A stretch of DNA of 58,932 nucleotides from a bacterium (GCA_046759165.1 JBHIBS010000003.1:1-58932); one strand, 5' to 3'; positions 6,409-29,251 are shown, counted from the stretch's first letter. Made by a program: numbers and translations. The notes: a model not told the origin generated them from the sequence alone.

Positions 6409-6516
6409 AAAATAAAAAAGCGTTCTATCCATCAGTGGTTAACCCCACCCATTAACGATGGGCGTAGGTAAATAGAACGCCTAAGTCCTTTTGCTATACT
6501 GACCCCTCAACGGGTC
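6409..6516 (-). promoter_or_regulatory. ANTAR-type dual-hairpin leader with overlapping terminator
   Basis: RNA GACCC-GUUGAG-GGGUC (6501-6516), 12-nt linker, GGAC-UUAGGC-GUUC (6475-6488) overlapping terminator GCGUUCUAUUUA...UGGAUAGAACGC-UUUUUUAUUUU. Confidence 0.75.
6441..6473. repeat. 33-bp palindromic element in the terminator loop
   Basis: 26/33 identical to 7016-7048. Confidence 0.6.
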
Positions 6517-6582
6517 TGATCCGTCTCTATCTCTCTACTTATACAAGTAAAAAAAGGGCAATTTTGTTAACTCCTATTTTCC

Positions 6583-7131
6583 TTATTCATCTATTTTATT
6601 GTTCCATTTCTTACAAATATGCTTCTGGATTTTGGATACCCTCACGAAAGAAATATCCAATCTTTTCCCAATTTCTCTCAGCGTATAGCCTTCTAAACAA
6701 AGAGCAAAGACTTCCTTCTCTCTTTTCGTGAGGCCATTTGTCCTCATCTTTTCAATGATTATTTTCCAATTAATCAACTCGGGAAGATGTTGAGAATTAT
6801 CTGGTATTATTTCACCGAGCGTTGTTTCCTCACTATCAATTGGTTCATCAAAACTGATAATTTCACCTTTATCATCAACTGTCCTTAGATAATTCTGAAG
6901 ATGAAACCAGCAACTCTGAAGCAGATAACTCTCAGTCTTTCCTTCAAGTTCGCCTTGTTTCCATTTCTTCCATAAATGAAGGGACATTTCTTGCATTAAA
7001 TCATCTTCATCAATAAACCCTGCCCATCGTTGATGGGCGTGGGTAAATCGTAAGTGTCCATTAACTCGTTTGGCTATTCCCTTAAGTCGAGGGAAAAGTC
7101 CTTCTAAGGACCTTTCAAAATTCACCTCCAT
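6583..7131 (-). CDS. Sigma-70 family (ECF/alternative) RNA polymerase sigma factor
   Basis: Region 2 DEDDLMQEMSLHLW and region 4 LTKREKEVFALCLEGYTLREIGKRLDIS; likely start ATG 7131 or GTG 7125 near AGGAGG rather than 7185. Confidence 0.85.
   Translation of the reverse strand: MEVNFERSLEGLFPRLKGIAKRVNGHLRFTHAHQRWAGFIDEDDLMQEMSLHLWKKWKQGELEGKTESYLLQSCWFHLQNYLRTVDDKGEIISFDEPIDSEETTLGEIIPDNSQHLPELINWKIIIEKMRTNGLTKREKEVFALCLEGYTLREIGKRLDISFVRVSKIQKHICKKWNNKIDE
7016..7048. repeat. 33-bp palindromic element, in frame inside the sigma gene
   Basis: GCCCATC-GTT-GATGGGC core; homologous to 6441-6473. Confidence 0.6.
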
Positions 7132-7183
7132 CACCTCCTGAAAACGGATTTGCACACCATCGTGATGGAGGACTTCCATGTCC
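7125..7183 (-). promoter_or_regulatory. ANTAR-type hairpin overlapping an RBS/start-sequestering stem
   Basis: RNA GGAC-AUGGAA-GUCC (7170-7183); perfect 10-bp stem CCUCCAUCAC/GUGAUGGAGG (7162-7171 with 7125-7134) covering the end of the SD, the spacer and the start region. Confidence 0.6.
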
Positions 7184-7230
7184 ATTCCCTGCCTGCTTTC
7201 CTAGAAGGCAGAGATTTTTCATTGCATTTT

Positions 7231-7266
7231 TTACCCCGTAAGACCTTTGGTCTCTTACGGGGTGAA
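7231..7266. repeat. Palindromic element overlapping the nadE 3' end
   Basis: ACCCCGTAAGA...TCTTACGGGGT 11-bp arms; ends resemble the ACCCCGTTAGA family. Confidence 0.55.
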
Positions 7267-8934
7267 TCTATTGGTGATTGGCATTCTCCTGTCCTTGCCA
7301 AATGCTTTAGGTGTAATCTTTATTCCCGGCGGCGACTGCCGGCGTTTATACTCACTCTTATCAACCATAGTCAAGACTTTATAGGTGGTCTCTTTATCGA
7401 AACCCAAAGAGATAATCTCATTTAAATCTTTATCCTCTTCAATATAAGCCTTCAAAATTGGGTCTAAAGTTTCATAAGTAGGCAATGTATCTCTGTCTTT
7501 CTGCTCGGGTTTAAGTTCGGCAGAGGGCTCTTTTGTTAGCACATGCTCAGGAATAACCAAACCAAGAGAATTCCTGTATCGAGCCAACTTATAAACTAAT
7601 GTTTTAGGTACATCTTTAATTACAGCAAAACCTCCGGCCATATCTCCGTATAGAGTGGCATAACCTGTACTCATTTCCGATTTATTACCCGTGGTTAAAA
7701 CCAGCCAGCCAAATTTATTAGAAAGCGCCATCAAAATATTGCCCCTGATGCGTGCTTGTAAGTTCTCCTCCGTTACATCCCTTTCTAATCCCAAAAAGTG
7801 CGGTTCAAGAATCATTAGGTAAATTTTATATATCTGCTCAATTGAAATATTTATTAATTTTATACCTAAATTTTGTGCCAATTGCCTGGCATCAATTCCG
7901 GATTCTTGCGAAGAATATCGTGAAGGCATAAATACACCGATAACATTTTCCTTGCCTAAAGCATCAACCGCTAAAGTTGCAACAACTGAAGAATCAATCC
8001 CTCCGCTTAAGCCAATAACTGCTTTCTGAAAGCCATTTTTAGTTACATAATCTTTAAGGCCTAAAATCAAAGCCTGATAAATCTCTACAATTGGCTCTAA
8101 TGGTTTAGTTTCTTTTTTAGGTAGCGGAGTTCTATTTTTAGATAATACTTCATCTGTAATCATAATTACTCTTTTTGCTGGTTCGGCCCTACTTGTCGGA
8201 ATATCTAAGTCTACTATTAATAAATCTTCCTTAAATGCTTCTACTGTAGCGATTACCTTGCCATTACTATCCACGACCATACTCTGACCATCAAAAACTA
8301 ATTCGTCTTGTCCACCGACTAAATTGGTATATGCAATAAATACGCCATTATCCTTTGCTTGATTACAAATAATTTCTTCCCTTTCTTTAATTTTGCCTGC
8401 ATGATAAGGCGAGGCACTAATGTTAAGAATTAGTTTTGCTCCAGATAAAACCTGTGATCTTATCGGCCCATCTTGATACCAAATATCTTCGCAAATGTTT
8501 ACGCCCAAGACGAATTCGCCAAATTTAAAAACTAAGGGGTTAATCCCAGATTTGAAATAGCGCTTCTCATCAAAAACACCATAATTAGGTAAAAGCATCT
8601 TGCGGTATATTTCTTTAATCTCGCCATTGTAAATTATAGCACAAGCATTATAGATGTCTTTCTCTTGTCTATCTACAAAACCAACAACAGCTACAATATC
8701 ATTAACAGATTTAATTAATTCTTTTAACTTTTCTAAATTATCTTCAATGAATTTAGGTTTAAGTAAAAGGTCTTCAGGTGGATAACCAGTAATAGCCAGC
8801 TCCGGAAAGGTCACTATATTAATACCCATTGACTTTGCTTCCTCGATGAATTGGCAGATTTTCTGAACATTCCCTTTTAAATCCCCCACCGTGCAATTAA
8901 TTTGAGCCAGACCTATTCTTAGAACCTTTTGCAT
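7255..8934 (-). CDS. nadE: Glutamine-dependent NAD+ synthetase
   Basis: N-terminal nitrilase-like domain ([21 protein letters not shown]) plus [31 protein letters not shown]. Confidence 0.96.
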
Positions 8935-8947
8935 CTCATCCTCCTTG

Positions 8948-9046
8948 AAAAAACGCCCTCAATCCCCTTCATTGGAAGAAGAGGACGTCTGGGTCCAAAA
9001 TAAAAATGTCTTCCAGCCCTGCATCGCCAAAAGACATCAATGTCTT
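8948..9046 (-). promoter_or_regulatory. Tandem hairpin/terminator ANTAR-type leader of nadE
   Basis: AAGAC-AUUGAU-GUCUU (9031-9046) overlapping terminator 9006-9037 plus U tract; GGAC-CCAGAC-GUCC (8983-8996) overlapping terminator 8953-8988 plus U tract. Confidence 0.75.
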
Positions 9047-9076
9047 ACTTCAAAAACCTAAATATTTTTTAAATTA

Positions 9077-9104
9077 ATTATAGCAAAACCTTTATTTTTG
9101 TTAA
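9077..9104 (-). promoter_or_regulatory. Sigma70-type promoter candidate for nadE
   Basis: TTAACA-16-TATAAT with TGn extended -10. Confidence 0.55.
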
Positions 9105-9120
9105 TATTTTCTCAAGAAAT

Positions 9121-10329
9121 TTATTTCTTCATTTCCGAAGTCAAAATAATCGCTTCGGCTATTTCACGCATTGACCTTCGCATATCCATACTCTTGCGAT
9201 GAATGGTCCTATATGCTTCGTCTTCCCCCATCCCGGTTTCTTTCATTAAAATGCCTTTAGCTCTTTCGACTAATTTCCTCACCTCTAAAGCCTCTCGGGC
9301 AGCCAAAATTTCTTCCATTAGTTTTGTATTCTCAATAGCTACTGCGGCTTGGTTAGCTACAGATTGTAAGATGTTTATCTCATCTTCAGTAAATTTATGT
9401 TCATTAGCAGTATAACTGTTAATCACTCCAACTACTTTATTCTTTACCATCATTGGGACAGCAAGCATCGAACAAATCCCTTCTTTCCTTGCTATTTGAG
9501 GATATTTGTAGCCGGGTTCTTCTGTCACATCTAAAACAGTAATTGGTTTTTTCTCTTTGACTGCTTTGCCACTGATACTCTCACCTACTCTTAACGGTGG
9601 TTTCTTAATATATTCCTCACTTAAACTTTGTGTCGCTTCAATAGTCAATTCCTGTTTCTTTTCATTTAAAAACATTATCGAACATATTTTCGAGTTCATC
9701 ATTTCAGCAGTCATGGTAACGATTAATTGAAGAATCTCTTTTAAATACCGGTTTGAAGCAATTGTCTTACTTACCTGAGCAAGAGTCTCCAACTGCATGG
9801 CTCTTTTTTTCGTTTCCTCATAAAGTCGAGCATTTTCAATTGCTCCACCAACCTGTTGAGCAATAGTAGAAAGAAGAGCTATCTCATCACGGCTATGCTG
9901 GTGAGCTTGCTTATGCTGTACATTGATTACCCCAATAACTTCGTTTTTGCTGATAATGGGAACTGAGAGAAAAGCCTGGTATTTATCTTCAGGGAGGTTG
10001 TGGAAAAATTTGAATCGCGGATCATCACTCGCATTCTTAGATATCGCCACCGACTTTTTCTCTTTCGCTACCCAACCAGTAATTCCTTCACCTAATTTAA
10101 GTCTTATTTTACCTAATATTTTCGGATGAGGATTCTTAGATGCCCGCAAGATTAGTTCTTCCTTCCTATCATCGAAAAGATATAATAGACAAGCGTCTCC
10201 TTCTGTAATCTGTATAACTATTTCAACGCTTCGTTTTAATACTTCTTCCAGATTCAACGTACAACTTATGGTTTCGGTAATCCTTCGTAATATCTGTATT
10301 TCCTCTTCTGGTTTTAATCTAAACTTCAT
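9121..10329 (-). CDS. GAF-GAF-ANTAR RNA-binding regulator
   Basis: Two GAF repeats (GEGITGWVA...LSVPI...VIGVINV) and C-terminal ANTAR (RKLVERAKGILM...EDEAYRTIHRKSMDMRRSMREIAEAII). Confidence 0.92.
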   Translation of the reverse strand: MKFRLKPEEEIQILRRITETISCTLNLEEVLKRSVEIVIQITEGDACLLYLFDDRKEELILRASKNPHPKILGKIRLKLGEGITGWVAKEKKSVAISKNASDDPRFKFFHNLPEDKYQAFLSVPIISKNEVIGVINVQHKQAHQHSRDEIALLSTIAQQVGGAIENARLYEETKKRAMQLETLAQVSKTIASNRYLKEILQLIVTMTAEMMNSKICSIMFLNEKKQELTIEATQSLSEEYIKKPPLRVGESISGKAVKEKKPITVLDVTEEPGYKYPQIARKEGICSMLAVPMMVKNKVVGVINSYTANEHKFTEDEINILQSVANQAAVAIENTKLMEEILAAREALEVRKLVERAKGILMKETGMGEDEAYRTIHRKSMDMRRSMREIAEAIILTSEMKK

Positions 10330-10355: not shown

Positions 10356-10371
10356 AGAACGTCATTGTTCT
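10356..10371 (-). promoter_or_regulatory. Isolated ANTAR-type hairpin
   Basis: RNA AGAAC-AAUGAC-GUUCU, 26 nt before the start codon. Confidence 0.55.
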
Positions 10372-10378
10372 TTTAATT

Positions 10379-10464
10379 CTGTTAGAAATTTTAGCAAATA
10401 GTATTTCGCCAGATAAAGATTAATCAAGTTTAATCTAGAAACTTATGAGATTTCTAACGGGGTT
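10379..10464. repeat. GTTAGAAAT...ATTTCTAAC inverted-repeat element
   Basis: Arms at 10381-10389 and 10450-10458 followed by GGGGT; same motif clustered at 38411-38572. Confidence 0.6.
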
Positions 10465-10470
10465 CATTCC

Positions 10471-10542
10471 AAAAAAAATGTCCTCCAGCTATCATTGCCA
10501 GAAGACATCAATGTCGCTTCCAGAAAAACACTTACGATGTGC
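10471..10542 (-). promoter_or_regulatory. ANTAR-type dual-hairpin leader with terminator (autoregulatory)
   Basis: GCAC-AUCGUAA-GUGU (10528-10542), 12-nt linker, GAC-AUUGAU-GUC (10504-10515) overlapping 12-bp terminator AUGUCUUCUGGC/GCUGGAGGACAU plus U tract. Confidence 0.8.
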
Positions 10543-10550
10543 CTCAAGTA

Positions 10551-10579
10551 ATTATACGTAATAAAATTATTTTTGTCAA
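10551..10579 (-). promoter_or_regulatory. Consensus sigma70 promoter
   Basis: TTGACA-17-TATAAT exact. Confidence 0.85.
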
Positions 10580-10749: not shown

Positions 10750-11445
10750 CTAAATACCAGTATCACTTTTTTGACATAAACTATCGATCAAACCTGCTTC
10801 TTCGAAGCCTTTAGCTCTCAATCTGCACGCATCACACTCACCACAAGGTTCTTCTTTCCCCTGATAACAACTCCAGGTAAGTTCTAAAGGCACTTTTAGC
10901 CTTACTGCTTCTTGTACTATCTCTTTCTTTGTCATTCGAATTAAAGGGGTTTTTATCTCTATTTTACCGCCTTCTATTGTCTTTTTTATAGCTACATTAA
11001 TCAGATTCTGATATGTTTCCATATATCTCAGTGTTGTATCTGGATAACCTGGATTATCTATCATATTTGCACCTATATAAATTGCATCTGCGTCTATCAC
11101 CTCGGCAAAACTCAAAGCTACGCCAAGAAAAATTGTATTCCTTGCCGGTACATAAGTCGGTGGGACATCGCTGACTATTTCTTCTATCTCTCTTCCCATA
11201 GGAACTTCTATGTTATCCGTTAAAGCTGAACCTCCTATTTGTCTTAAATCAATCTTAATCTTTTTAAAAATTGCACCAGCTTTCTCAGCTATTCTTCTTG
11301 AAGATTCGACCTCCTTGAGATGCCTCTGTCCGTAGTCAAAACATAATGCATAAGGGACATACCCATCTTCAATCGCCTTGTACAAGCAAGTAGATGAATC
11401 AAGTCCACCGCTTAATAATACTACTGCTTTTTTGTCTTCTTTCAT
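10750..11445 (-). CDS. queC: 7-cyano-7-deazaguanine synthase
   Basis: VLLSGGLDS, YGQRH, TYVPARN, TWSCY...PCGECDACRLR; ORF extends upstream to 11484. Confidence 0.95.
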   Translation of the reverse strand: MKEDKKAVVLLSGGLDSSTCLYKAIEDGYVPYALCFDYGQRHLKEVESSRRIAEKAGAIFKKIKIDLRQIGGSALTDNIEVPMGREIEEIVSDVPPTYVPARNTIFLGVALSFAEVIDADAIYIGANMIDNPGYPDTTLRYMETYQNLINVAIKKTIEGGKIEIKTPLIRMTKKEIVQEAVRLKVPLELTWSCYQGKEEPCGECDACRLRAKGFEEAGLIDSLCQKSDTGI

Positions 11446-11545
11446 TGTCTCCCATTCCATTTTCTTTTTCTTGTAGCCTTCCATTTCCTATGGCCGCAAT
11501 CCGCTATCGGGCGGGTCTTAAATTCTCTGGGAATCTCTTATTAGG

Positions 11546-13156
11546 TCAAATTTTAAGCTGTATATTTTTTTCCCTATTTAGGGAGGCTTTGATAAAATCT
11601 CTGAACAGGGGGTGGGGTTTCCCGGGTCTGGACTTGAATTCGGGGTGGAACTGCACTGCTACAAACCAGGGGTGGCCTTTAAGTTCAACAATTTCTGCCA
11701 GATGTTTTTTCTCATACTCGCCAGTCACCAGGAGCCCCTTTGCTTTCAACCTGGCTCGAAACTTATTGTTCAATTCATACCTGTGTCGATGTCTCTCAAA
11801 CACAAATCCTTTTTTATAGGCACAAAAAGCAAGGGAGCCTTCTTTGATTCTGCATGGATAATTCCCCAGCCTCATCGTTCCGCCTTTTTGAAATATCTTC
11901 TTCTGCTCAGGAAGCAAATCGATAACTGGGTAGGGAGTATGTGGATTGAATTCTGTGCTGTGTGCTCCTTTCATTCCACAGACGCTTTGAGCGAAATCGA
12001 TTACTGCGCACTGCATTCCTAAACAGATACCCAGGAAAGGAACTTTACTCTCCCGAGCAAATCTGCAAACCCTTATTTTCCCGTCGATCCCTCTCTCTCC
12101 AAATCCTCCTGGAACAAGTATTCCATCTACAGTTTCTAATTCTTTCTCCAATTTTGTATCTTCTACGTCAATATATTTTATCCTGACATTTACATTAGTG
12201 GTTAGTCCTCCGTGAACTAATGCTTCCCATATGCTCTTGTAGGCATCTTTTAGCTCGGTGTACTTTCCTGCAATACCAATTATCACATTTTTTCTTAAGC
12301 TTCTTATTTTCTTAAGAATTTCTTTCCATTTAGATAGGTCACTACTCTTTCTCCTAAAACGTAACATTTCCAATAAAATAGTATCGAGGTTTTGTCCTTT
12401 CAGCATTAAGGGGACCTCGTAGATACTGGTGGAGACGTCCCTTTCTTCGACTACTGCTTTTCCTTGAACGTTACAGAATAATGCTATCTTTCTCCTTAAC
12501 TCCTTTGGCAATGGTCTTTCAGTACGGCAAATAATTATTTGAGGCTCAATTCCAATTTCCCTTAACTTGGCTACACTCTGTTGTGTGGGCTTTGTCTTCA
12601 TCTCCTCAGCAGCTCGGATGTAAGGCACCAGGGTCACGTGAATATAACAAACGTTATCTCCTCCTACGTCCTGCTTGAACTGTCTCGCTGCTTCCAGAAA
12701 AGGCAGTCCTTCTATATCGCCTGTGGTTCCGCCAATTTCAGTAATTACTACATCGGAATTTTTCGATAACACCTTGATACGAGACTTAATCTCATCAGTG
12801 ACATGGGGAATGACTTGGACCGTTTTGCCCAAGAAATCTCCTTTCCTTTCTTTACTGATCACTGCGTCGTAGATCACACCACTGGTGATATTATTGGTCT
12901 GTTTCAAATTGATATCCAGAAACCTTTCATAATGGCCCAAATCTAAATCGGTCTCCGCTCCATCTTCGGTTACGAAAACTTCTCCGTGTTGAAAAGGGCT
13001 CATCGTTCCAGGGTCTACATTAAGATAAGGGTCTATCTTCAGGATATTTACTTTCAATCCGCAACTTTTTAATAAACATCCAATAGAGGCTGCGGTTATC
13101 CCTTTACCTAACGAAGAGACTACTCCACCCGTAATGAAAATGTATTTAGTCGCCAT
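11546..13156 (-). CDS. pyrG: CTP synthase
   Basis: [45 protein letters not shown]. Confidence 0.98.
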
Positions 13157-13177
13157 TCTAGCTTTCCTTCCTTAGCA

Positions 13178-14608
13178 CTAAAATAACTCTACTTGCTTGC
13201 TCTTTTTACCAGTTTTCTGCTCTAATCTATATTTAGAGACTTCTTCCTCAACTGGAACAGGATAATTTCCATCAAAGCAAGCTGTACAGAACTCTTCTCT
13301 GTCCAGATACATTGAGTTGAGCATTCCTTCCAAGCTTAGATAACCTATACTGTCCAGACCGATATAATCTTTTATCTCCTTCAAGGTATGCGAAGAAGCT
13401 ATCAATTCGCTCTTCGTAGGAAAATCTATCCCATAGAAGCAGGGAAATCTATGAGGAGGGCAACTGACCCTCATATGGACCTCCTTAGCACCAGCATCCC
13501 GAAGAGTCCTCATTCTGGTCCTCGATGTAGTCCCCCGGACAATGGAGTCTTCCACAATTACTATGCGCTTGTCTTTTAAGACTTCTCTCACTGGATTAAG
13601 TTTTACCTTCACACCCAAATCCCGTACATATTGTGAAGGCTCAATAAAGGTTCTCCCTACATAGTGGTTTCTTACCATACCCATTTCAAAGGGAACTCCA
13701 GACTCTTCAGCATAGCCCAAAGCTGCATAGTTTCCAGAATCTGGAATGGGCATAACTAAATCTGCCTTTACCGGACATTCCCTAGCGAGCTGCATGCCTA
13801 ATCTCTTTCTGGCCAGGTAAACACTCTTTCCAAAAATGTTACTATCAGGTCGGGCAAAATAGATAAATTCGAAAATGCAAAAAGAATGTTTTCCACCTGA
13901 AAATGGCTTGACAGAACGGAGCCCATTCTTATCTATAAAAAGTATCTCTCCTGGCTCAATATCTCTAAGGTATTCAGCTTGAATGAGGTCCAGAGCGCAA
14001 GTCTCTGAAGCAACACAATAAGCATTATCGAGCTTGCCCAGACAAAGTGGTCGGAACCCTTTTGGATCTCTTATTGCAATTAATTTATCTTCGGTTAATA
14101 AGACTAAAGAATAGGCTCCTTTTATTTGAGTCAAAGAATCGATTAGCCTCTTCTCCAAATCGGGCTCTTTTGACCTCGCTATGAGGTGAATTACCACTTC
14201 ACTATCCATGGTGGACTGTAAAATAGAGCCCGAACTCTCCAATTCATTTTTCAGGCGAAGAGTATTGACCAGGTTACCATTATGGGCAATGGCAATAGAA
14301 CCTTGGAAGTAGTTAACAAAAAAGGGCTGAACATTTTTAATAGTAGAAGAGCCAGTAGTAGAATACCGAACATGTCCTATTGCAAGGTGCCCGGAAAGTT
14401 TCTCTAGTATCTCACGGCTAAAAACATCAGCTACAAGTCCCATCCCTCTGTGGGCAGCGGTCTGTTTGCCGTCAGAGACAACGATTCCTGCACTCTCCTG
14501 GCCTCGGTGCTGAAGTGCGTAAAGACCTAAATAAGTAAGCCGGGTTGCATCCGTGTGTCCAAAGATACCAAATACTCCACATGCTTCCTTCGGTAATCTC
14601 TTCCACAT
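13178..14608 (-). CDS. purF: Amidophosphoribosyltransferase
   Basis: EACGVFG, LQHRGQESAG, GHVRYST, EDSIVRGTT, PCFYGID. Confidence 0.97.
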   Translation of the reverse strand: MWKRLPKEACGVFGIFGHTDATRLTYLGLYALQHRGQESAGIVVSDGKQTAAHRGMGLVADVFSREILEKLSGHLAIGHVRYSTTGSSTIKNVQPFFVNYFQGSIAIAHNGNLVNTLRLKNELESSGSILQSTMDSEVVIHLIARSKEPDLEKRLIDSLTQIKGAYSLVLLTEDKLIAIRDPKGFRPLCLGKLDNAYCVASETCALDLIQAEYLRDIEPGEILFIDKNGLRSVKPFSGGKHSFCIFEFIYFARPDSNIFGKSVYLARKRLGMQLARECPVKADLVMPIPDSGNYAALGYAEESGVPFEMGMVRNHYVGRTFIEPSQYVRDLGVKVKLNPVREVLKDKRIVIVEDSIVRGTTSRTRMRTLRDAGAKEVHMRVSCPPHRFPCFYGIDFPTKSELIASSHTLKEIKDYIGLDSIGYLSLEGMLNSMYLDREEFCTACFDGNYPVPVEEEVSKYRLEQKTGKKSKQVELF

Positions 14609-14665
14609 TACCGTATCCCTCTCTTAAATCAGCAAAAAGGAGTGAACTCAATCAAGCAATCAGTC

Positions 14666-14712
14666 AAACAAAAAAGCCCTCCAGCCACTTTTGCCAGAAG
14701 ACCCATTGAATT
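14666..14712 (-). terminator. Leader terminator upstream of purF, homologous to the ANTAR leader terminators
   Basis: GGUCUUCUGGC-AAAAGUG-GCUGGAGGGCU-UUUUUGUUU; the overlapping hairpin is degenerate (CAAUGG loop, broken stem). Confidence 0.7.
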
Positions 14713-14792
14713 TTGTAGAATGCTTTGCTGTATTTGATTCATATTTTACCTATTCTTTCCCTCTTTTGTCCAGAAATTTTTAGAGAGCTCTT

Positions 14793-15551: not shown

Positions 15552-15571
15552 AGTAAATTTTCCTCCATGGT

Positions 15572-18547: not shown

Positions 18548-18548
18548 C

Positions 18549-19244: not shown

Positions 19245-19493
19245 CTACACCTCTTCTATCTTAAAGCTATAATCTTCTATGATAGGATTGGCTAATAACT
19301 TGTGACACATTTGGTTAACTTTTGTTTCAGTCTCTCTTTTATCTTTTAGATTTAATTTTATAGTAATTAACTTCCCCACACGAACCTCTTCTACTTCCTT
19401 ATAATTTAGAGAATCCAAAGCACGTTTAATAGTTAAGCCTTGAGGATCAGACACTGTCTTTTTTAGAGTGATATAGATTTCTGCTTTTACCAT
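19245..19493 (-). CDS. purS: FGAM synthase subunit PurS
   Basis: DPQG and LLANPIIEDY motifs. Confidence 0.95.
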   Translation of the reverse strand: MVKAEIYITLKKTVSDPQGLTIKRALDSLNYKEVEEVRVGKLITIKLNLKDKRETETKVNQMCHKLLANPIIEDYSFKIEEV

Positions 19494-19496
19494 TCT

Positions 19497-21059: not shown

Positions 21060-22707
21060 CTTCTGTTTCATAAGTGGAGTAATAATAAGGAGTATAGGCC
21101 TCAAATTCTGCGCCACATGTATCAACAAGTTTAAAAGTAGGCAAAATGCCTCTTTCTTTGCGCAATTTATAAATTAAACTTTCATCCATTCCAAAAAGTT
21201 TGGACAATTGTTTATCAGAAAAACCATATTCCTTGGCCTTGTAGATAAGGTATGTAGGAATTTTAGATTTACTTCTCCCTTTATAGGAGTTGAGCTCTTT
21301 TTCCAGGTCTACAATCTCTTTTATATTATACAAAAACCATCTGTCAATCTTACTCAACTCATACACCTCATCTATATTCATACCTTTCTTTAACGCGTAT
21401 TTTATATAAAATACCCTCTCTGCATTGGGCACCCTTAATTTCTCTTCCAGTCTTTCATCTGAAACCCCATCTTTTAAATCCTCCAATCCAAAAATCCCTA
21501 TTTCTAAAGAGCGCAGCCCTTTTTGCAGTGCTTCTTTAAACGTTCGGCCAATAGCCATCACCTCACCTACAGATTTCATAGAGACGGTTAATGAAGGGTC
21601 TGCTTCAGGAAATTTCTCAAATGTAAAGCGAGGAATCTTCACTACACAATAATCAATAGTTGGCTCAAAACAAGCCTGGGTCTCTTTGGTGATGTCATTT
21701 GGGATTTCCTCTAATGTGTAACCAATGGCTAATTTTGCCGCGATCTTTGCAATAGGAAAACCTGTAGCTTTAGAAGCTAAAGCCGAACTTCTTGATACCC
21801 TAGGATTCATCTCAATAATAACCATTTTACCATTTTCAGCATTTATGGCAAACTGAATATTTGACCCTCCTGTCTCAACACCTATCTCTCTAATGCAGGC
21901 AATTGCTGCATCGCGCATTTTTTGATATTCTTTATCGGTCAATGTTTGCGCTGGAGCAACAGTAATTGAATCTCCTGTATGAATTCCCATAGGATCAAAA
22001 TTTTCTATTGAACATATAATGACGACGTTATCCTTTAAGTCTCTCATTACCTCTAATTCAAACTCCTTCCAGCCAATAAGAGACTCCTCAATTAATATCT
22101 CGCTAATCATACTTGACTCAAGGCCCCTTTCAGCCACCTCTTTAAATTCTTCTCTATTGTATGCTACACCTCCCCCTGTCCCACCTAAAGTAAAACTTGG
22201 ACGAACGATCACAGGAAAACCTACACTCTCAACTACATCAAGAGCCTCTTTTATGTCGTAAGCCTTTCCGCTTTTGGGCAAATCCAATCCAATCTTTTGC
22301 ATTGCCTCCTTAAATAGTTCTCTGTCCTCTGCTTTTTTGATTGCCTCGACATCTGCCCCAATTATCTCTACTTTATATTTACTTAAAATACCTCTTTTTG
22401 CTACGGCTACAGTAACATTTAACGCGGTTTGACCACCTAATGTTGGCAAAATAGCATCGGGTCTTTCTCTTTCAATTACTTTTTCAACCACTTCTGGGGT
22501 AATCGGTTCAATATAAGTTCTATCAGCCATCACCGGATCAGTCATAATAGTAGCAGGATTGCTATTCAGCAAAATCACCTTAAACCCTTCGGTTTTTAAA
22601 ACCTTACAAGCTTGCGTGCCTGAATAGTCAAATTCACAGGCCTGGCTAATAATTATAGGACCCGAGCCAATAATGAGAATTTTGTTAATATCAGTTCTCT
22701 TAGGCAC
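21043..22707 (-). CDS. carB: Carbamoyl-phosphate synthase large subunit, N-terminal half only
   Basis: [42 protein letters not shown]; ends at [19 protein letters not shown] after 554 aa. Confidence 0.92.
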
Positions 22708-23815
22708 GATTTAGCTCCATCATCTTAACAAATTCATCGAACAAGTATTGTGCATCATGAGGTCCGGGAGATGCTTCAGGATGAAATTGCACTGAAAATA
22801 TAGGAAGTTTTTTATGCTTGATTCCTTCTAAGGTGTTGTCATTGAGGTTAATATGGGTTATCTCGATATCTTCCTTATTCAAAGAATCCATATCCACACA
22901 GAATCCATGATTTTGTACAGTTATATAAACCTTACCTGTGTTCAAGTCCTTGACAGGATGGTTTGCTCCATGATGACCAAATTTAAGCTTGTAAGTCTTT
23001 CCGTCCAGGGCCAATCCCAACATCTGGTGCCCTAAACAGATGCCGAAAACTGGTAATTTGCCGATTAATTTTTTAACAGTTTCAACTACATAAGGAACGC
23101 CTGCCGGGTCTCCTGGGCCATTGGAAAGTAATATGCCATCTGGTTCCATCGTTAGAATTTGCTCGGCTTCTGTCTTTGCTGGGACAATAATCACCTGGCA
23201 CTCATTATTGACTAATTCCCTCAAAATATTAAACTTAACTCCGCAATCTACAACTACTACTTTGTACTTGCCTCGTTCATTCCAATTTTGGACTCTATCA
23301 GCTGTAACTTCCTTAACCAAATCCCTGCCAATCAGCCCAGGTGAAGACTTAGCCTTTTCAATTAAGCTTTTTTCATCTAAATTCTCAGTGGAAATAACAG
23401 CCTTCATCGCGCCTTGTAATCTAATATGTCGGGTAAGTGCGCGTGTATCTATACCCTCTATCCCTATTATACCATTTTCTTTAAGGTATTCGTCTAGGCT
23501 TTTTTGTGAGCGCCAATTACTGGCAATGCGGCTACATTCCTTAACCACAAAACCTTCCACAAATGGCTTTCTTGACTCAACATCTTCGGAATTTATACCA
23601 TAGTTACCGATGAGTGGATAGGTCATGGTGACGATCTGACCTTTATAGGAAGGATCGGTGAGGACTTCTTGATAACCAGTCATGCTGGTACTAAAGACTA
23701 CTTCACCGAATCTGGTTCCACTTGCACCGAAGGAGAAACCTTCAAAGGCTCTGCCATCTTCAAGAGCAATCCTTGCCTTCCTTTGTTTATTCCCATAGCC
23801 TTGGTTCTTCATCAA
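22700..23815 (-). CDS. carA: Carbamoyl-phosphate synthase small subunit
   Basis: [41 protein letters not shown]. Confidence 0.97.
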
Positions 23816-23818
23816 ATT

Positions 23819-25384
23819 TTAACCCAGGATTTGGTCCACTTTTTCCTTATCGTAATCCATTACATAGGCAATGCCAGAGATTTCTGAAGCTGACCTGGTT
23901 ATAGCAAAGATATCATCTCGGTTGATATACTTTAGAGCGAATTTTCTTTCGCCAGCCATAAGCTGTCTTAGACCTGTTGCTAATCGATCGTAGTAGGTAT
24001 ACATCCCAATAGCACCTGTGGGGATATCTTTGAAGTCCTTTCCATATTTTCCCTTTAACGTTTCAGCCGCAACGAAAATCTGTTCTATTGTATGCCCATA
24101 TTTCTTATATTCAGCAGGCACCTTACCTTCTTTTATAAGGTTACCCACTGTCTTGGCGGCCATCGCCGCAGCAAACGTTGCTCTACCCATACATATAGCC
24201 TTCACATAAGGTGCAGCCAATGCTATAGCCTTGAAAATGTGGTCTTCTAACGCAAGGCCTCCAGCTATTGCTACTGGCGGAATATATTTACCCTGCTCGT
24301 CTATTCTCTTTAACATTTGATAGAGAAGGCATTCTAACTCAACGGTGGGGATGCCCCACTCGTTCATCATTCTCCAGGGACTCATCCCAGTTCCTCCACC
24401 TGCTCCATCTACTGTAATCAGATCAATTTTAGCATTGGAAGCATACTTGACCGCTCTAGCCAAATCGACTGGTCGATAAGCACCTGTTTTTAGGGTTACA
24501 TATTTAAATCCGAGCTTTCTTAAGCGCTCCACTTCTTTGTAAAACGCTTCTTCTTCAACCATGCCAAGTCTTGAATGTCTTTCAAATTCTTTAATAGCCC
24601 CCTCTTTGTAGGCCTTCTTTGTCACAGGGTCTTCTGGGTCAGGATAGACGATATAACCCCTCTTCTTAAGTTCAAGGGCTCTTTCTATCGATGGCAATTT
24701 AACTTCTCCTCCTATATCTTTAGCTCCTTGACCCCACTTAGGCTCAATAGCCTCCACGCCAAGCTCCAGGACATATTCGGGAACACCAAGCCTTCCATCT
24801 TCAACATTATATTGAACTACTATCGTTCCATTTCCTGTATGCCATTTCCTGTAACTCTTGATTCTGCGTTCCATTTCTGCCGATTTTACTATCCTTCCGT
24901 TCTTAATCTCAGCTCGGTGATCCATCCCACAGACATTCTCTCCTACAACCACTATTGTTCCACATATAGCTGCGCCTACAGCGTTCTCTTCCCAATTGAT
25001 CCTCGCTATCTCAGTTGAGCCTAGAGCACCTGTAAAGAATGGCACATCTAACCTAAGCTTATTTTCCCCTCCCACTTCTGTGGCCACATTAACATTGGGA
25101 AATGTAGCTTTATCCGGATCCGCTTCTACACCAACTGCACCAACACATGTCCCGTGAATATTGAAATGAGAAAAATCTATTGGGTAATCCTTTTCACAAC
25201 CAGCAACAATCTTTCCAAAAGGCTGAGGGTAAATAAGTTCTCTTCCTCTAATACCTGATTTTGCAACCTCACAAAAGCCTACGCAACCATCAAGACATGT
25301 AACACAGAGTCCAGAAATTGGCGCTGGATTTACCCTATTTCTGGTATTTGTTGCAGGACTTGCATTTGGTTTACTAAAAGACAT
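23819..25384 (-). CDS. FMN-binding glutamate synthase family protein (stand-alone)
   Basis: N-terminal CVTCLDGC..FC cluster, KWGQGAKDIGGE, TVDGAGGGTGMSP, IAGGL; AGGAGG RBS. Confidence 0.85.
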   Translation of the reverse strand: MSFSKPNASPATNTRNRVNPAPISGLCVTCLDGCVGFCEVAKSGIRGRELIYPQPFGKIVAGCEKDYPIDFSHFNIHGTCVGAVGVEADPDKATFPNVNVATEVGGENKLRLDVPFFTGALGSTEIARINWEENAVGAAICGTIVVVGENVCGMDHRAEIKNGRIVKSAEMERRIKSYRKWHTGNGTIVVQYNVEDGRLGVPEYVLELGVEAIEPKWGQGAKDIGGEVKLPSIERALELKKRGYIVYPDPEDPVTKKAYKEGAIKEFERHSRLGMVEEEAFYKEVERLRKLGFKYVTLKTGAYRPVDLARAVKYASNAKIDLITVDGAGGGTGMSPWRMMNEWGIPTVELECLLYQMLKRIDEQGKYIPPVAIAGGLALEDHIFKAIALAAPYVKAICMGRATFAAAMAAKTVGNLIKEGKVPAEYKKYGHTIEQIFVAAETLKGKYGKDFKDIPTGAIGMYTYYDRLATGLRQLMAGERKFALKYINRDDIFAITRSASEISGIAYVMDYDKEKVDQILG

Positions 25385-25519: not shown

Positions 25520-25674
25520 AATAAAAAAGCGTTCTTTTGCCAAAACGTATGACATTGAACGCCATTGTTCTAAAAAACGTACTTCTCTTAGCAAACTTTG
25601 TTACTAAAAGGACGTCTTTATCCAGTTCTTCTAACGAACACCTTTGTCCATTTTTCAAGCACTATCCTTGTGCT
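25520..25674 (-). promoter_or_regulatory. Four-hairpin, two-terminator ANTAR-type leader
   Basis: GCAC-AAGGAUA-GUGC (25659-25673), GGAC-AAAGGU-GUUC (25636-25649), GGAU-AAAGAC-GUCC (25610-25623) then imperfect stem plus U6, GAAC-AAUGGC-GUUC (25557-25570) overlapping GCGUUC...GAACGC-U6. Confidence 0.85.
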
Positions 25675-25690
25675 CTATTTTACAAAACAA

Positions 25691-25719
25691 ATCCTATCAC
25701 AAGGCCTTAGACATGTCAA
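25691..25719 (-). promoter_or_regulatory. Sigma70-type promoter
   Basis: TTGACA-17-TAGGAT with TGn. Confidence 0.7.
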
Positions 25720-25732
25720 GCTTTTTTTCGCC

Positions 25733-26419
25733 TCAGCTCATTTTTCTTCGTCCCCTGCAAACTTTAACGCAGATTCCACAAATATGATGCCCTATGTTAC
25801 AAGTCTTTCTAAATTCATCTAATTTCCTGTAACAGGCAAGCCAATCAAAATCTTCAAGCTTCTCTTTGATAGCTCCTGCTGGGCAGACTCCCAAGCAGTC
25901 CTCGCAGTCATCACACCCATTTTCTATCGGTTTGTCACAGGGAAGAGGAAAATCGGTTAAAACAGTAACCAGTCTAATCCGAGAACCGAAATCTGGATTA
26001 ACCAATAGATTGTTTCTACCAATCCAGCCCAGGCCCGCCTGTTGTGACACCTCCTTATGTGAAAGATGGCCTCTCTGCTTCTCCCAATCAATGGTCTGGG
26101 AAGACGGTATTGGCAAAGCATTCCCGCCCCTATTTTGAATAAATTGCGTGACTCCCAGAGCCACACGGTCCAAAAAATAATTCACTTGGCGGTAATGGTA
26201 ATAGTAGAGTTTAGTTGGTCTATCCTCAATACTCTCAATTATCTTCTCAGACAACCTCACTGCTAAAGAAATACCCTTATTCAATCCTTTAATGACTCCG
26301 GGAGATAAATTTAAAAATTCACCTTTCAACTTGGGAAGGTCAGCAACTCCAAATAACGAAGCTCCCGATTCCAAGGCAAACTCTTTTAGTTTAGAATAGT
26401 TTTCTCTCTCCTGATCCAT
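25733..26419 (-). CDS. Epoxyqueuosine reductase (QueG)-like 4Fe-4S protein
   Basis: AGLGWIGRNNLLV..FGSRIRLVTVLTD, CDDCEDCLGVCP, CGICVKVC. Confidence 0.75.
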   Translation of the reverse strand: MDQERENYSKLKEFALESGASLFGVADLPKLKGEFLNLSPGVIKGLNKGISLAVRLSEKIIESIEDRPTKLYYYHYRQVNYFLDRVALGVTQFIQNRGGNALPIPSSQTIDWEKQRGHLSHKEVSQQAGLGWIGRNNLLVNPDFGSRIRLVTVLTDFPLPCDKPIENGCDDCEDCLGVCPAGAIKEKLEDFDWLACYRKLDEFRKTCNIGHHICGICVKVCRGRRKMS

Positions 26420-26432
26420 ATTTCACATCCTT

Positions 26433-28313
26433 TTAACTTCCCATCCTCTTCATGTGAACCATTAAGATAGCAATAGCAGCTGGAGTAACTCCTGAAATGC
26501 GTGAAGCCTGACCTAAAGAGCCTGGTCTTATCTTAGACAATTTTTCTCTCACCTCGTTCGATAAACCAACAATTTCCTCATAATTAATTCCCGCAGGAAT
26601 TTTTCTATTCTCCAGTTTCTTAAACTTTTCTATCTCTTGCTTTTGGTGTTTGATATATCCTTCATATTTAATTTGGATTTCCACCTGCTCGGCTACCTCC
26701 AATGGAACCTCACCACTTTTCTTATCAAAAAGTTTCAAATCAGAGTGAGAAATTTCAGGTCTCCTCAATAGTTCAGCTAAACTGATTGGACTTCTCAGAG
26801 TTACCCATCCCGATTCGGAAAATTTCTTATTTGTCCTGGAATTGGGAAAAATCTTGACCTCTTTTAATCGAGCCAGCTCTTTTTCAATAGCTCTCTTTTT
26901 AGCTTCGACCTCTTGGTATCTCGCTTCTCCAGCCAGCCCGATGCTATATGCCTTCTCGGTTAGTCTCAAGTCGGCATTATCTTCTCTCAAAATTAGTCGG
27001 TACTCAGCTCGGGAAGTGAACATACGATAAGGTTCCTTAGTTCCCTTAGTTACTAGATCATCAATCAAAACACCAATATAACCTTCCGAACGGTCGAGGA
27101 TAAATGGTGTCTTATTCTGTATTTTCAGGGCAGCGTTAATTCCACCAATTAATCCTTGTGCTGCTGCCTCTTCATAACCAGTGGTCCCATTAATTTGGCC
27201 GCAGAAGTAGAGATTGTCAATTGATTTGGTCTCCAGTGTTGGTCTTAGCTGTGTGGGTTCGACATAATCATGCTCAATACCATACCCAGGTCGCATTATC
27301 TCTATACCTTCCAAACCCTCGATAGTTCGCAACATCCTGAACTGGATATCTATAGGCAAACTGGTCGCTAAGCCATTGGGATAAAATTCGGATGTATTAA
27401 GACCTTCTGGTTCCAAAAAAATCTGATGTCGTTCTCTTTCCGGGAATTTCATTACCTTATCTTCAATGGAGGGACAGTAGCGTACCCCTGTCCCTTTAAT
27501 AACACCCGTATAAAGAGGGGAACGGTTCAGACCTTCTCTGATTAGCTGGTGCGTTTTAGGATTCGTGTAAGTAATATAACAGGGTAGTTGAGGCTGAGTT
27601 ACCTTTTTAGTAGTAAAAGAGAAAGGAACGGGAACTTCATCGCCTTTTTGTGATTTAAGTTTAGAAAAATCGATAGTTTTCCCATCCAGGCGAGGACAGG
27701 TTCCAGTCTTGAATCTGCCTATTTGAAAACCGAGTTCCTTCAGATTCTGAGAAAGTTTTACTGCCGGGAAGTCACCCATCCTGCCAGCCGGGAAATTCAT
27801 CAAACCAATATGAATTAATCCATTTAAGAAAGTTCCGGGAGTAATAATCACCGCTTGTGCATAAAACTTCTCACCAATGCTTGTTTTTACTCCCACTACA
27901 GCGCTTTCCTCTACCAGAATTTCTTCAACCAAGGCTTGCTTTAATTCCAAATTTTCCTGCCTCTCTAAGACCTCTTTCATCCCCAGCCGGTAGGCTTGCC
28001 TATCTACCTGTGCTCGTGAGCCGCGGACAGCTGGACCTTTCGCCATGTTCAATCGTCGAAATTGAATAGCTGTTGCATCCGTATTCTTGCCCATCTCTCC
28101 ACCTAAGGCATCGATCTCTTTAACCAACTGACCCTTCGCTAAACCACCAACTGCCGGGTTACAAGACATAAAGGCAATAGTATCCAAATTCATACTCAAA
28201 AGCAGAGTTCGGCAACCAAGCCGAGATGCCGCAAGAGCAGCCTCACAGCCAGCGTGGCCGCCGCCCACTACAATAACCTTATATTCTCTATCTCTAGGTT
28301 CCAACCCTGCCAT
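26433..28313 (-). CDS. mnmG: tRNA uridine-5-carboxymethylaminomethyl synthesis enzyme
   Basis: VVGGGHAGCEAA, MSCNPAVGG, RYCPSIEDK, GQINGTTGYEEAAAQG, EPYRMFTSRAEYRL. Confidence 0.97.
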   Translation of the reverse strand: MAGLEPRDREYKVIVVGGGHAGCEAALAASRLGCRTLLLSMNLDTIAFMSCNPAVGGLAKGQLVKEIDALGGEMGKNTDATAIQFRRLNMAKGPAVRGSRAQVDRQAYRLGMKEVLERQENLELKQALVEEILVEESAVVGVKTSIGEKFYAQAVIITPGTFLNGLIHIGLMNFPAGRMGDFPAVKLSQNLKELGFQIGRFKTGTCPRLDGKTIDFSKLKSQKGDEVPVPFSFTTKKVTQPQLPCYITYTNPKTHQLIREGLNRSPLYTGVIKGTGVRYCPSIEDKVMKFPERERHQIFLEPEGLNTSEFYPNGLATSLPIDIQFRMLRTIEGLEGIEIMRPGYGIEHDYVEPTQLRPTLETKSIDNLYFCGQINGTTGYEEAAAQGLIGGINAALKIQNKTPFILDRSEGYIGVLIDDLVTKGTKEPYRMFTSRAEYRLILREDNADLRLTEKAYSIGLAGEARYQEVEAKKRAIEKELARLKEVKIFPNSRTNKKFSESGWVTLRSPISLAELLRRPEISHSDLKLFDKKSGEVPLEVAEQVEIQIKYEGYIKHQKQEIEKFKKLENRKIPAGINYEEIVGLSNEVREKLSKIRPGSLGQASRISGVTPAAIAILMVHMKRMGS

Positions 28314-28349
28314 AAACTATCTTCGCTCCGCAATTCCAATCCTACTTCC

Positions 28350-28422
28350 AAAAAAATGTCTTCTGCCCAAATCATCAGAGCAAAAGACATCAACGTCCTT
28401 CATTAGAACATTTCAATATGCT
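28350..28422 (-). promoter_or_regulatory. ANTAR-type dual-hairpin leader with terminator upstream of mnmG
   Basis: AGCAU-AUUGAA-AUGUU (28407-28422), AAGGAC-GUUGAU-GUCUUU (28383-28400) overlapping terminator AUGUCUUUUGCUC/GGGCAGAAGACAU plus U tract. Confidence 0.8.
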
Positions 28423-28431
28423 TTTTGTTGT

Positions 28432-28460
28432 AGGGTACTGAATTCTTTTTGTTTTATCAA
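28432..28460 (-). promoter_or_regulatory. Sigma70-type promoter candidate
   Basis: TTGATA-17-TACCCT just upstream of the first hairpin. Confidence 0.4.
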
Positions 28461-28471
28461 GCAATTTTTTA

Positions 28472-29251
28472 TTATTTTCTTATCTCCTTGCTTAAAATTA
28501 TAGCCTCTGCAATCTCCCGCATGGGCTTGCGAGTGTCCATACTTTGCTTCTGTATTCTTCGGAAAGCCTCTTCCCCAGATATCGCCAGCTCGTCCATTAA
28601 TATATCCTTTGCCCTCTCTACGAGTTTGCGAGTTTCAAGCTCTTCTTGAATAACTTTAGACCTCACCATAAGTTCCATATTCTCAATAGCAACTGCAGCC
28701 TGATTGGCTACTGTGGTAAGCATATCTATTTCCGATTTGGTAAATCGGCGAGGTGAGGAGGTATAGCAATTAATAACTCCAATCACCCTTCCCCTCACAT
28801 TTAGGGGAACGCTCAAGAGAGAACATAACTTCTCTTTTTTTGCTATCTCCATATTTATATAGCGAGCATCCTTTTTTACGTCCAGAACCCTAATGGCTCT
28901 ATTCTCCCTAGCAACCCTTCCCGCGATACCTTCTCCCAATTTCAGATTCGGTTTCCTGTTATACTCCTCACTGATCGACTGAGTCGCTCGAACAATTAGC
29001 TCCTTCTTATCCTCATGCAATAGCATTAAGGAGCATATTTTAGAACCCATTACCTCAGCTGTCACAGTTACAATCAATTTCAAAATATTTTCCAAGTAAA
29101 GTTCAGAAGAGATTGCCTTGCTTATTCTGGAAAGCGCTTCTATCTGCTTGCTGTAAGATCTATCTCTTCTTTTCGATTTTCGCGAAGGCTTTTTAGCTAC
29201 TGTTTTCAAGTTATTAATCCTCCTTGATGACAACATCTTCACCCAATTCAT
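28472..29251 (-). CDS. GAF-ANTAR RNA-binding regulator
   Basis: Single GAF closely similar to GAF2 of 9121-10329; ANTAR RKLVERAKDILM...EEAFRRIQKQSMDTRKPMREIAEAII. Confidence 0.92.
   Translation of the reverse strand: MNWVKMLSSRRINNLKTVAKKPSRKSKRRDRSYSKQIEALSRISKAISSELYLENILKLIVTVTAEVMGSKICSLMLLHEDKKELIVRATQSISEEYNRKPNLKLGEGIAGRVARENRAIRVLDVKKDARYINMEIAKKEKLCSLLSVPLNVRGRVIGVINCYTSSPRRFTKSEIDMLTTVANQAAVAIENMELMVRSKVIQEELETRKLVERAKDILMDELAISGEEAFRRIQKQSMDTRKPMREIAEAIILSKEIRK

Follow-up and report, generated by a model that had tools for sequence, protein, structure and literature searches.

The question and its probable answer

What governs a series of U-tailed terminators that precede genes for both the supply and the consumption of glutamine, in a cluster that also encodes two GAF-ANTAR proteins? 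The question is raised by a bacterial DNA of 58,932 nucleotides (nt; GCA_046759165.1 JBHIBS010000003.1:1-58932, analysed whole and hereafter called the window), which is contig C3 of an assembly (G000) of 1,885,084 bases in 165 contigs that is 92% complete. Known ANTAR substrates (those of EutV, NasR and AmiR) consist of two small hexaloop hairpins with A at loop position 1 and G at position 4 (A1/G4), the second of which (P2) lies over the 5' base of an intrinsic terminator (PMC3369931). The leaders of the window have the same anatomy, dual hairpins, A1/G4 loops and P2-terminator overlap alike, and for this reason antitermination by the GAF-ANTAR proteins is taken as the best explanation; the leaders are probably protein-dependent transcription attenuators of the ANTAR type that one or other of these proteins would relieve.

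ANTAR-type leaders

The typical unit pairs P2, a weak hexaloop hairpin of 4-5 base pairs (bp) with the consensus RGAC-NNNGRY-GUCY, with a terminator whose 5' arm begins inside the P2 loop at G4, which gives the two structures loop positions 4-6 and the P2 3' arm in common. P2 often follows a second small A1/G4 hairpin (P1). Seven such units with U-tailed terminators were found in the window, in the leaders at 6409, 8948 (two units), 10471, 25520 (two units) and 28350. The leader features are as follows, including two sites that depart from this plan.

6414-6516, minus strand: supply-operon leader, with P1 at 6501-6516 (GUUGAG), P2 at 6475-6488 (UUAGGC) and terminator at 6414-6481
7116-7183, minus strand: leader of the extracytoplasmic function (ECF) sigma gene (leader 7125), with a hairpin at 7170-7183 (AUGGAA) overlapping a long stem at 7116-7173
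8948-9104, minus strand: nadE leader, with a promoter-like sequence at 9104-9077 (11/12)
9031-9046 (P2) and 8997-9038 (terminator), minus strand: nadE leader unit a, folds
8983-8996 (P2) and 8948-8989 (terminator), minus strand: nadE leader unit b, folds
10357-10579, minus strand: leader of the GAF-GAF-ANTAR gene, with a promoter match at 10579-10551 (12/12), P2 at 10504-10515 (AUUGAU) and terminator at 10471-10509
14670-14704, minus strand: terminator in the hisF-purF interval, lacking an antiterminator hairpin and akin in sequence to the 10471 and 8997 terminators
25523-25719, minus strand: leader of the carA operon, with a promoter-like sequence at 25719-25691 (10/12) and a heptaloop P1 at 25658-25674 (A1/G4)
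25610-25623 (P2-a) and 25572-25616 (terminator), minus strand: carA-operon leader unit a, folds
25557-25570 (P2-b) and 25523-25563 (terminator), minus strand: carA-operon leader unit b, folds, 35.8 bits with covariance model R1 (see below)
28350-28422, minus strand: mnmG leader, with P1 at 28407-28422 (AUUGAA), P2 at 28384-28399 (GUUGAU) and terminator at 28350-28391, 34.7 bits with R1

Folded with RNAfold, the small hairpins reach -2.6 to -4.8 kcal/mol and the terminators -11.0 to -26.8 kcal/mol, a difference indicative of termination as the default state. An earlier note on this DNA had claimed that in five leaders the 3' strand of the distal hairpin is also the 5' arm of the terminator, which we see at 6409, 8948, 10471, 25520 and 28350. 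All twelve hexaloops that it listed can be read on the minus strand, with G4 in 12/12 and A1 in 8/12, and the leader at 14666, when read and folded, indeed keeps the terminator alone. It had further counted six leaders with hairpins; the hairpins are all present, but the leader at 7125 is doubtful as a terminator unit. This leader is atypical in having a weak U-tail (UGAAUUUUG) and a long stem that spans an in-frame AUG and the Shine-Dalgarno sequence of the ECF sigma gene. Homologues of this gene at locus L002 and in genome G004 (loci of other bacteria are numbered L, genomes G) carry canonical units.

The 10471 leader has a heptaloop P1 (10528-10542) that keeps A1 and G4, scores 36.2 bits with R1, and is followed by an additional hairpin without a terminator (10357-10370, AAUGAC) 27 nt before the GAF-GAF-ANTAR start codon; the homologous gene in L002 has the same upstream arrangement. 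Units a and b of the nadE leader score 40.1 and 31.2 bits. In the carA-operon leader a third unit is represented by a hairpin at 25636-25649 (AAAGGU) with no U-tract, and G002 (L104) has three tandem units at the equivalent place. The P1 hairpins of the window comprise three canonical and two heptaloop forms. A simple promoter scan placed its three highest-scoring sites of the region a short way before the 10471, 8948 and 25520 leaders; its overall match counts were no higher than those of shuffled sequence. A division of the hairpins into two classes, one for each ANTAR protein (AUUGAU at the mnmG, ANTAR and nadE-a leaders, NNAGRC elsewhere), was considered, and comparison across genomes showed no consistent pairing.

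Specificity and covariation of the motif

One account of these structures is that the hairpins have no regulatory role and accompany ordinary terminators, or a dispersed repeat, by chance. If every 4-bp hexaloop hairpin that overlaps a terminator is counted, this would be reasonable, with 613 cases genome-wide and G4 in 150 of them (24%, against 20% genomic G), and we abandoned that loose definition as no better than chance and unenriched in G4. The near-identity of the units at 28350, 10471 and 8997 and the 14670 terminator, which are close copies of one another, also speaks for a repeat. The strict word RAC-N3-GRY-GUY behaves differently: the two genome strands together hold 88 copies, and eight of these fall on the minus strand of C3:1-30000, about 0.8% of the scanned sequence, where about 0.7 would be expected. 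All eight are inside leaders.

Covariance model R1 was built from a seed of 39 units (six from the window and 33 from other genomes). Register shifts or long loops led to the omission of several units from the underlying alignment (A2), namely those of candidate phyla radiation (CPR) bacteria (L040-L050), L034, L035, L024:12008, window 6403-6490 and the 7125 leader. In the 39 units P2 is paired in 94.9% of 156 cells and the terminator in 88.9% of 388 cells, with both-side changes in 7/10 terminator pairs, compared with 40-64% paired in slid controls; these percentages are partly circular since the selection pattern demanded the inner three P2 pairs and a folding terminator. The two outer P2 pairs alternate between G-C and A-U, and the outermost, which lies outside the selection, is GC in 17 units, AU in 10, GU in three, UG in one and other in eight. 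Alignment columns 15 and 16 covary with both of their partners, as expected of mutually exclusive structures.

Loop identity was also examined where it had not been selected. Among compact hairpin-terminator overlaps in the window and 80 loci, G4 is present in 51/65 hairpins with RAY...GYY stems compared with 220/760 with other stems, and A1 in 34/65 of the former. A P1 (an A1/G4 hexaloop hairpin of at least 4 bp, no more than 50 nt upstream) accompanies 27/44 units, as against 264/4000 random windows drawn from these loci and 151/2200 shuffles. In a scan of 81 sources (1.32 Mb), all 37 R1 matches at E (expectation value) of 0.1 or below lie on the strand of the ANTAR gene, eight of them non-seed. 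Confinement of the strict motif to the leaders of this cluster, its retention at orthologous sites of other phyla even as both partners of base pairs change, the enrichment of G4, A1 and P1 over controls, and the 37/37 strand agreement together make chance companionship very improbable, and we disfavour it.

The earlier note had proposed a covariance-model scan of this and related genomes. In G000, R1 gave seven matches at E<=1, six of which (E<=1.2e-3) are in the cluster (150 of 523 first-look candidates scored), and the supply-operon leader was recovered from outside the seed (37.0 bits at 6411-6490). The seventh match (C32:7400-7450, E 0.31) precedes an open reading frame of 1677 amino acids (aa) with no Pfam family and was treated as noise. 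Counting G000, 10/11 genomes of the window's order have R1 matches. As a separate observation, a GAC-AGAGGU-GUC hexaloop hairpin lies over the Shine-Dalgarno sequence of glmS (G000:C12:42700-42740, plus strand) with neither P1 nor terminator, and may be due to chance or be a translational site.

If the attenuators are real, their operator could still be something other than an ANTAR protein, such as a riboswitch, leader-peptide translation or another RNA-binding protein, of which P-II and the NYN-domain protein (29214-30533) are examples. Some units have no P1, and the NYN-domain gene overlaps the GAF-ANTAR gene, both of which would suit such an operator. The hairpins are, however, too weak and too short for a ligand pocket. 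Rfam yielded no match at gathering score in the window (four chance-level matches, with E up to 5, fall in 6300-29300), and no glutamine, purine, PyrR-site or T-box leader was matched there among its covariance models. Across phyla the unit co-occurs with GAF-ANTAR genes, and R1 gave no match in the 30 loci that hold distant GAF proteins alone (L051-L080). Most relatives that keep the unit have no NYN gene, and the A1/G4 hexaloop is itself described as the ANTAR signature (PMC3369931). We regard a different operator as quite improbable, and return to the GAF-ANTAR proteins.

The two GAF-ANTAR proteins

9121-10329, minus strand: GAF-GAF-ANTAR one-component regulator of 402 aa (Pfam ANTAR 72.1 bits)
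28472-29251, minus strand: GAF-ANTAR one-component regulator of 259 aa (Pfam GAF_2 83.4 bits, ANTAR 71.0 bits)

Both genes had been recognised in the earlier note, and their ANTAR domains (Pfam PF03861) lie far above the cut-off of 27.3 bits. They are the only two ANTAR domains of the whole assembly, scoring 75.8 and 74.0 bits in the genome scan. Their C-terminal 55-65 residues match the structures 1s8n (a putative antiterminator), 6wsh (a response regulator) and 4akk (NasR), with E between 3.7e-10 and 3.6e-5. For all three GAF domains the best matches are to the GAF domain of PtsP (EI-Ntr), with NifA next. This holds for structures (PtsP 3trc, E 1.3e-24; 3ci6, E 1.1e-23) and for NCBIfam (PtsP NF008283, E 7.7e-45 and 4.4e-19, then NifA TIGR01817, 2.9e-30), the PtsP likeness being at the domain level alone and far under the whole-protein cut-off of that family.

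The GAF domain of NifA senses 2-oxoglutarate. That of EI-Ntr binds glutamine (PMC4848567). Likeness to both points to glutamine and/or 2-oxoglutarate as the likely signal, and the GAF domains of the window may well read nitrogen status in this form, a proposal to which we attach about even weight for and against. Homologues of the 402-aa protein with 45-70% identity occur in many phyla, in metagenome-assembled genomes (MAGs) labelled Nitrospirota, Elusimicrobia, Manganitrophaceae, Latescibacterota, Firestonebacteria, Syntrophorhabdaceae, Omnitrophota, Planctomycetia, Atribacteria and Gottesmanbacteria.

Beside the GAF-ANTAR gene, and overlapping it by 38 nt, lies the gene of the NYN-domain (RNase-like) protein (29214-30533, minus strand), whose long N-terminal part is coiled-coil-like; G002 has this gene and most relatives lack it. 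The order cinA-(NYN)-GAF-ANTAR-mnmG-QueG-like (window 25733-32000, minus strand; L099-L106) is kept in the family.

Gene content and clustering of glutamine enzymes

Every gene between position 1 and about 32 kb lies on the minus strand of the window. In order of transcription, Pfam and NCBIfam identify cinA, the NYN-domain protein, GAF-ANTAR, mnmG and a QueG-like Fe-S protein, then a Glu_synthase-like flavin mononucleotide (FMN) protein, carA, a half-size carB, guaA, purS, purQ, purL, hisH and hisF, and then purF, pyrG, queC, GAF-GAF-ANTAR, nadE and an ECF-type sigma gene, followed by the supply operon.

1-6401, minus strand: supply operon, with a Peptidase_C26 glutamine amidotransferase (GATase), orf90, amt, P-II, glnA, an HTH_8 protein, a GltB GATase_2 subunit and a Fer4-Glu_synthase subunit (Pfam)
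6583-7185, minus strand: ECF-type sigma-70 family gene (TIGR02937 52.4 bits, cut-off 42.9; Pfam Sigma70_r4 32.9 bits)
7255-8934, minus strand: nadE, glutamine-dependent nicotinamide adenine dinucleotide (NAD) synthetase (Pfam CN_hydrolase and NAD_synthase)
10750-16177, minus strand: hisH-hisF, then purF-pyrG-queC (Pfam), whose leaders were read and hold no intact ANTAR-type unit
16340-25384, minus strand: tight operon of the Glu_synthase-like FMN protein, carA, half-size carB, guaA, purS, purQ and purL (Pfam)
25733-26419, minus strand: 228-aa QueG/reductive-dehalogenase-like Fe-S protein
26433-28313, minus strand: mnmG (Pfam GIDA 562 bits)

The last gene of the supply operon (the Fer4-Glu_synthase subunit, 1-816) is cut by the start of the window. 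The ECF sigma gene probably has its true start further downstream than 7185; tblastn homologies span about 170 aa. A terminator of its own follows nadE (7227-7262), the genes of the carA operon are separated by gaps or overlaps of a few bases, and the 228-aa Fe-S protein has a partial TIGR00276 match of 69.7 bits that is under cut-off.

Eight of the 11 distinct GATase genes of the assembly lie inside this block (about 800-26000, minus strand), together with the glutamine-dependent nadE. By class, the block holds 6/7 class-I GATase, 2/4 GATase_6 and 1/1 GATase_2 matches, and the genes outside it are glmS (C12), an asnB-like frame (C17) and one on C23. The genes of the block are grouped by a common co-substrate and not by pathway. 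The cluster as a whole spans 29 kb and holds the majority of the bacterium's genes for making and using glutamine.

Several genes of the block are unusual in themselves. The half-size carB (21043-22707, minus strand) encodes 554 aa that correspond to positions 1-545 of the 1058-position large-subunit model; a second carB-like half adjoins carB in relatives, and none was seen in the window. The first gene of the carA operon (23819-25384, minus strand) has a weak Glu_synthase match (E 3.2e-15 over 120 residues) and no NCBIfam match, shares 71-88% identity with its counterparts in L002, L006 and G002, and is distinct from the Fer4-Glu_synthase subunit at 1-816. In the supply operon, orf90 (5385-5657, minus strand) matches no family and heads ANTAR/amidotransferase operons in G002 and G004, and an 81-aa Fis-type HTH_8 protein (1900-2145, minus strand) is encoded between glnA and the gltB subunits. 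A second purL-like gene (about 750 aa, 49-50% identity) paired with a hisF-like gene (65-69%) is found in relatives, between guaA or purF and pyrG (L104 15174-18250, L109 5034-8166, L110, L111), and is absent from the window.

Conservation in relatives

For the comparisons of neighbours and gene order, tblastn matches covering less than 40% of the query were dropped. Within the order, units head orf90-ANTAR-Glu_synthase-like-carA-carB-guaA-purSQL-hisHF-purF in G002 and G004, ANTAR-carA-carB-purF-pyrG in G009 and G010, and gdhA-guaA-purL'-hisF'-pyrG-queC in G003, G004 and G006; pyrG and queC therefore stand behind a unit in relatives, unlike in the window. G004 also has units before the ECF sigma gene, amt-P-II and glnA-GATase-nadE-gltB. 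The mnmG leader is intact in G000, near-identical in G003, G006 and G008, and present as a variant in G001.

In other phyla a RGAC-NNNGNN-GUCY hairpin with an overlapping terminator is found just before or after the ANTAR gene, on the coding strand, where it precedes nadE, glnA, amt, gdhA, an ECF sigma gene or the ANTAR gene itself; gdhA, an amino-acid-permease/P-II fusion and porin-like proteins are further genes behind units. Neighbours of the ANTAR genes in L001-L052 include glnA at 13 loci, an ECF sigma homologue at nine, nadE at five, mnmG with the QueG-like gene at five and amt/P-II at several, with Glu_synthase-like, pyrG, purF or carAB genes in L002, L006, L032 and L038. Five distant genomes scanned whole gave 1-6 R1 matches each, clustered by ANTAR genes and preceding amt, glnA, gdhA, nadE and ECF sigma genes.

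Three arrangements in these loci deserve mention on their own. A GAF-GAF-ANTAR/mnmG/Fe-S trio occurs in L007, L009, L010, L014 and L020 with no R1 site. In a distant MAG, an ANTAR-type unit immediately precedes the gene of an amino-acid permease with a fused P-II domain (L032 13289-15166, plus strand). At nine loci of other phyla an ECF sigma homologue stands after the ANTAR gene or nadE, in most cases with a canonical unit, which suggests a possible cascade from ANTAR to sigma factor.

Proposed mechanism and targets

Under the proposed mechanism the terminator would win when no protein is bound, and transcription would stop. A dimeric GAF-ANTAR protein would bind P1 and P2, the terminator would be blocked and RNA polymerase would read on. 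Where units stand in tandem (two ahead of nadE, two or three ahead of the carA operon), read-through would depend on several binding events and the response would be sharper. The targets in the window are plausibly the supply operon (C26-amt-P-II-glnA-gltB), nadE, the operon of Glu_synthase-like, carA, carB, guaA and purSQL, mnmG, and the GAF-GAF-ANTAR gene itself; the ECF sigma gene is probably a further target. The earlier note had extended control to NAD, nucleotide and tRNA-modification genes. This extension is plausible for nadE, the carA operon and mnmG but is not supported for hisHF and purF-pyrG-queC, which have no intact unit here.

The content of this target list could be explained otherwise if the amidotransferase genes were passengers, that is, if ANTAR controlled amt, glnA, gltB, gdhA and itself, and the nucleotide, NAD and tRNA genes had joined through operon fusion in a small-genome lineage with no logic of demand. 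R1 sites in distant phyla do stand mostly before glnA, amt-PII, gdhA, ECF sigma and ANTAR genes, the lack of working units at hisHF and purF-pyrG-queC fits as well, and operon content varies among the related genomes. Such passengers are nevertheless hard to reconcile with nadE, which is directly behind a unit at four loci of other phyla (L012, L017, L018, L022) and here has its own promoter and two-terminator leader. Operons of the type carA-carB-purF-pyrG or gua-pur-his-pyrG-queC are behind units in seven genomes of the order, and 8/11 GATase-domain genes in one block would be difficult to reach by drift. We therefore consider it unlikely that the amidotransferase genes are passengers.

Several observations weigh against attenuation by the GAF-ANTAR proteins as proposed, or against its full breadth. 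It is physiologically unusual for the same type of unit to induce both glutamine supply and glutamine demand. No unit was found in the hisHF leader, purF-pyrG-queC is preceded by a terminator alone, and the 7125 leader combines its weak tail with the absence of an R1 match. Units nadE-a, nadE-b and carA-operon b each lack a separate P1, and two P1 loops are of 7 nt. G002 and G005 have a degenerate mnmG leader, and ANTAR-mnmG pairs in other phyla carry plain terminators with no R1 match. The domain-level nature of the PtsP likeness and the partial circularity of the pairing percentages count in the same direction, as does the non-independence of the related genomes in the alignment. Finally, the R1 scan was not exhaustive, since 150 candidates were scored in each genome (of several hundred in each of the others), and sites beyond the cluster may have been missed. 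A look-up of sequencing runs for this DNA listed five DNA holders from three studies and no RNA holder. ANTAR is not claimed as the sole nitrogen regulator either, given that the genome has three strong matches to sigma-54 activators and that GlnD was not found in the assembly.

A broader reading, tentative and in our judgement somewhat less probable than its negation, would place these proteins in a widespread one-component RNA-binding family in which a GAF domain of the PtsP/NifA type is the direct sensor of glutamine or 2-oxoglutarate and the ANTAR domain relieves leader terminators. As part of the same joint reading, the family would range over Nitrospirota, Elusimicrobiota, Omnitrophota, Gottesmanbacteria, Syntrophorhabdaceae and the vent lineage of the window. 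In that lineage it would govern a whole 'glutamine economy', in which supply (amt, glnA, gltB, gdhA) and nearly all amidotransferases (carA, guaA, purQ/L, purF, pyrG, hisH, nadE) are gathered in one supercluster centred on their co-substrate and tuned together by way of tandem terminators and an ECF sigma factor under ANTAR control.

Significance

Why ANTAR antitermination tracks nitrogen genes was left open in the 2012 paper, as its text has it (PMC3369931). The present loci offer a testable answer in a sensor whose nearest relatives bind glutamine and which is fused directly to ANTAR; were the glutamine-economy reading to hold, it would supply a direct molecular reason for the tie between ANTAR and nitrogen across bacteria. 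The loci also point to genes organised and controlled by a common co-substrate, not by the end product of a pathway, in a block where the customary leaders of the purine, pyrimidine and T-box kinds are all missing. Members of the GAF-ANTAR family are frequent in uncultured phyla, CPR bacteria among them. With a short, defined RNA target and a small protein, the system should be easy to reconstitute in vitro and could serve as a glutamine-responsive genetic part.

Comparison with known systems

ANTAR antitermination as a class of mechanism, and its tie to nitrogen, are already established. In solventogenic clostridia the ANTAR-type regulator NitR is encoded next to glnA and gltAB. The system of the window resembles EutV/EutW of the Enterococcus faecalis eut genes in its dual hexaloop hairpins, A1/G4 loops, P2-terminator overlap and several leaders (PMC3369931). 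It differs, as far as that description extends, in its regulators, which are predicted from sequence to be one-component GAF or GAF-GAF proteins and not a phosphorylated receiver, and in its fixed RGAC/GUCY P2 stem, tandem units, P1 loops that are sometimes of 5 or 7 nt, and glutamine-enzyme targets.

The statement in the earlier note that no ANTAR regulon of this breadth had been described was too strong. Ramesh et al. (2012) predicted ANTAR nitrogen regulons, one of them, in a Desulfotomaculum, with at least 13 sites in six transcription units, and their predicted targets include P-II, ammonium, urea and nitrate transport, nitrogenase, and glutamate, glutamine and arginine synthases (PMC3369931). 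Breadth in the number of sites is thus not new, and the regulons predicted for Desulfotomaculum, Pelobacter and others share with the window many sites in several nitrogen units (P-II, amt, glutamate and glutamine synthases). The main text of that paper names no NAD synthetase, carbamoyl-phosphate synthetase, synthases of guanosine monophosphate, formylglycinamidine ribonucleotide (FGAM) or cytidine triphosphate, mnmG or ECF sigma, and its Table S2 may overlap with our list. Our literature search found, in the collection it covered, no paper linking ANTAR to nadE, carAB, pyrG, purF or guaA, again with the proviso that Table S2 of PMC3369931 may list such genes.

Among one-component ANTAR proteins, the part of PMC7496416 that bears on them gives only NasR and PAL as characterised and names no GAF-ANTAR protein. 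NasR of Klebsiella (NIT-ANTAR) and PAL (PAS-LOV-ANTAR) resemble the proteins of the window in having a sensor fused directly to ANTAR, and NasR likewise relieves a leader terminator; the sensor here is instead a GAF domain. GnfK/GnfR of Geobacter sulfurreducens also uses ANTAR-dependent antitermination in a nitrogen regulon, but GnfR is described as a two-component response regulator with nitrogen-fixation targets (PMC2995071). Compared with EI-Ntr (PtsP) and NifA, the predicted output of the GAF sensor is RNA binding, and not phosphotransfer or sigma-54 activation. What is new, on the sequence evidence, is the predicted one-component GAF sensor, the distinctive P2, the apparent reach to glutamine-consuming enzymes and an ECF sigma factor, and the clustering of genes by co-substrate.

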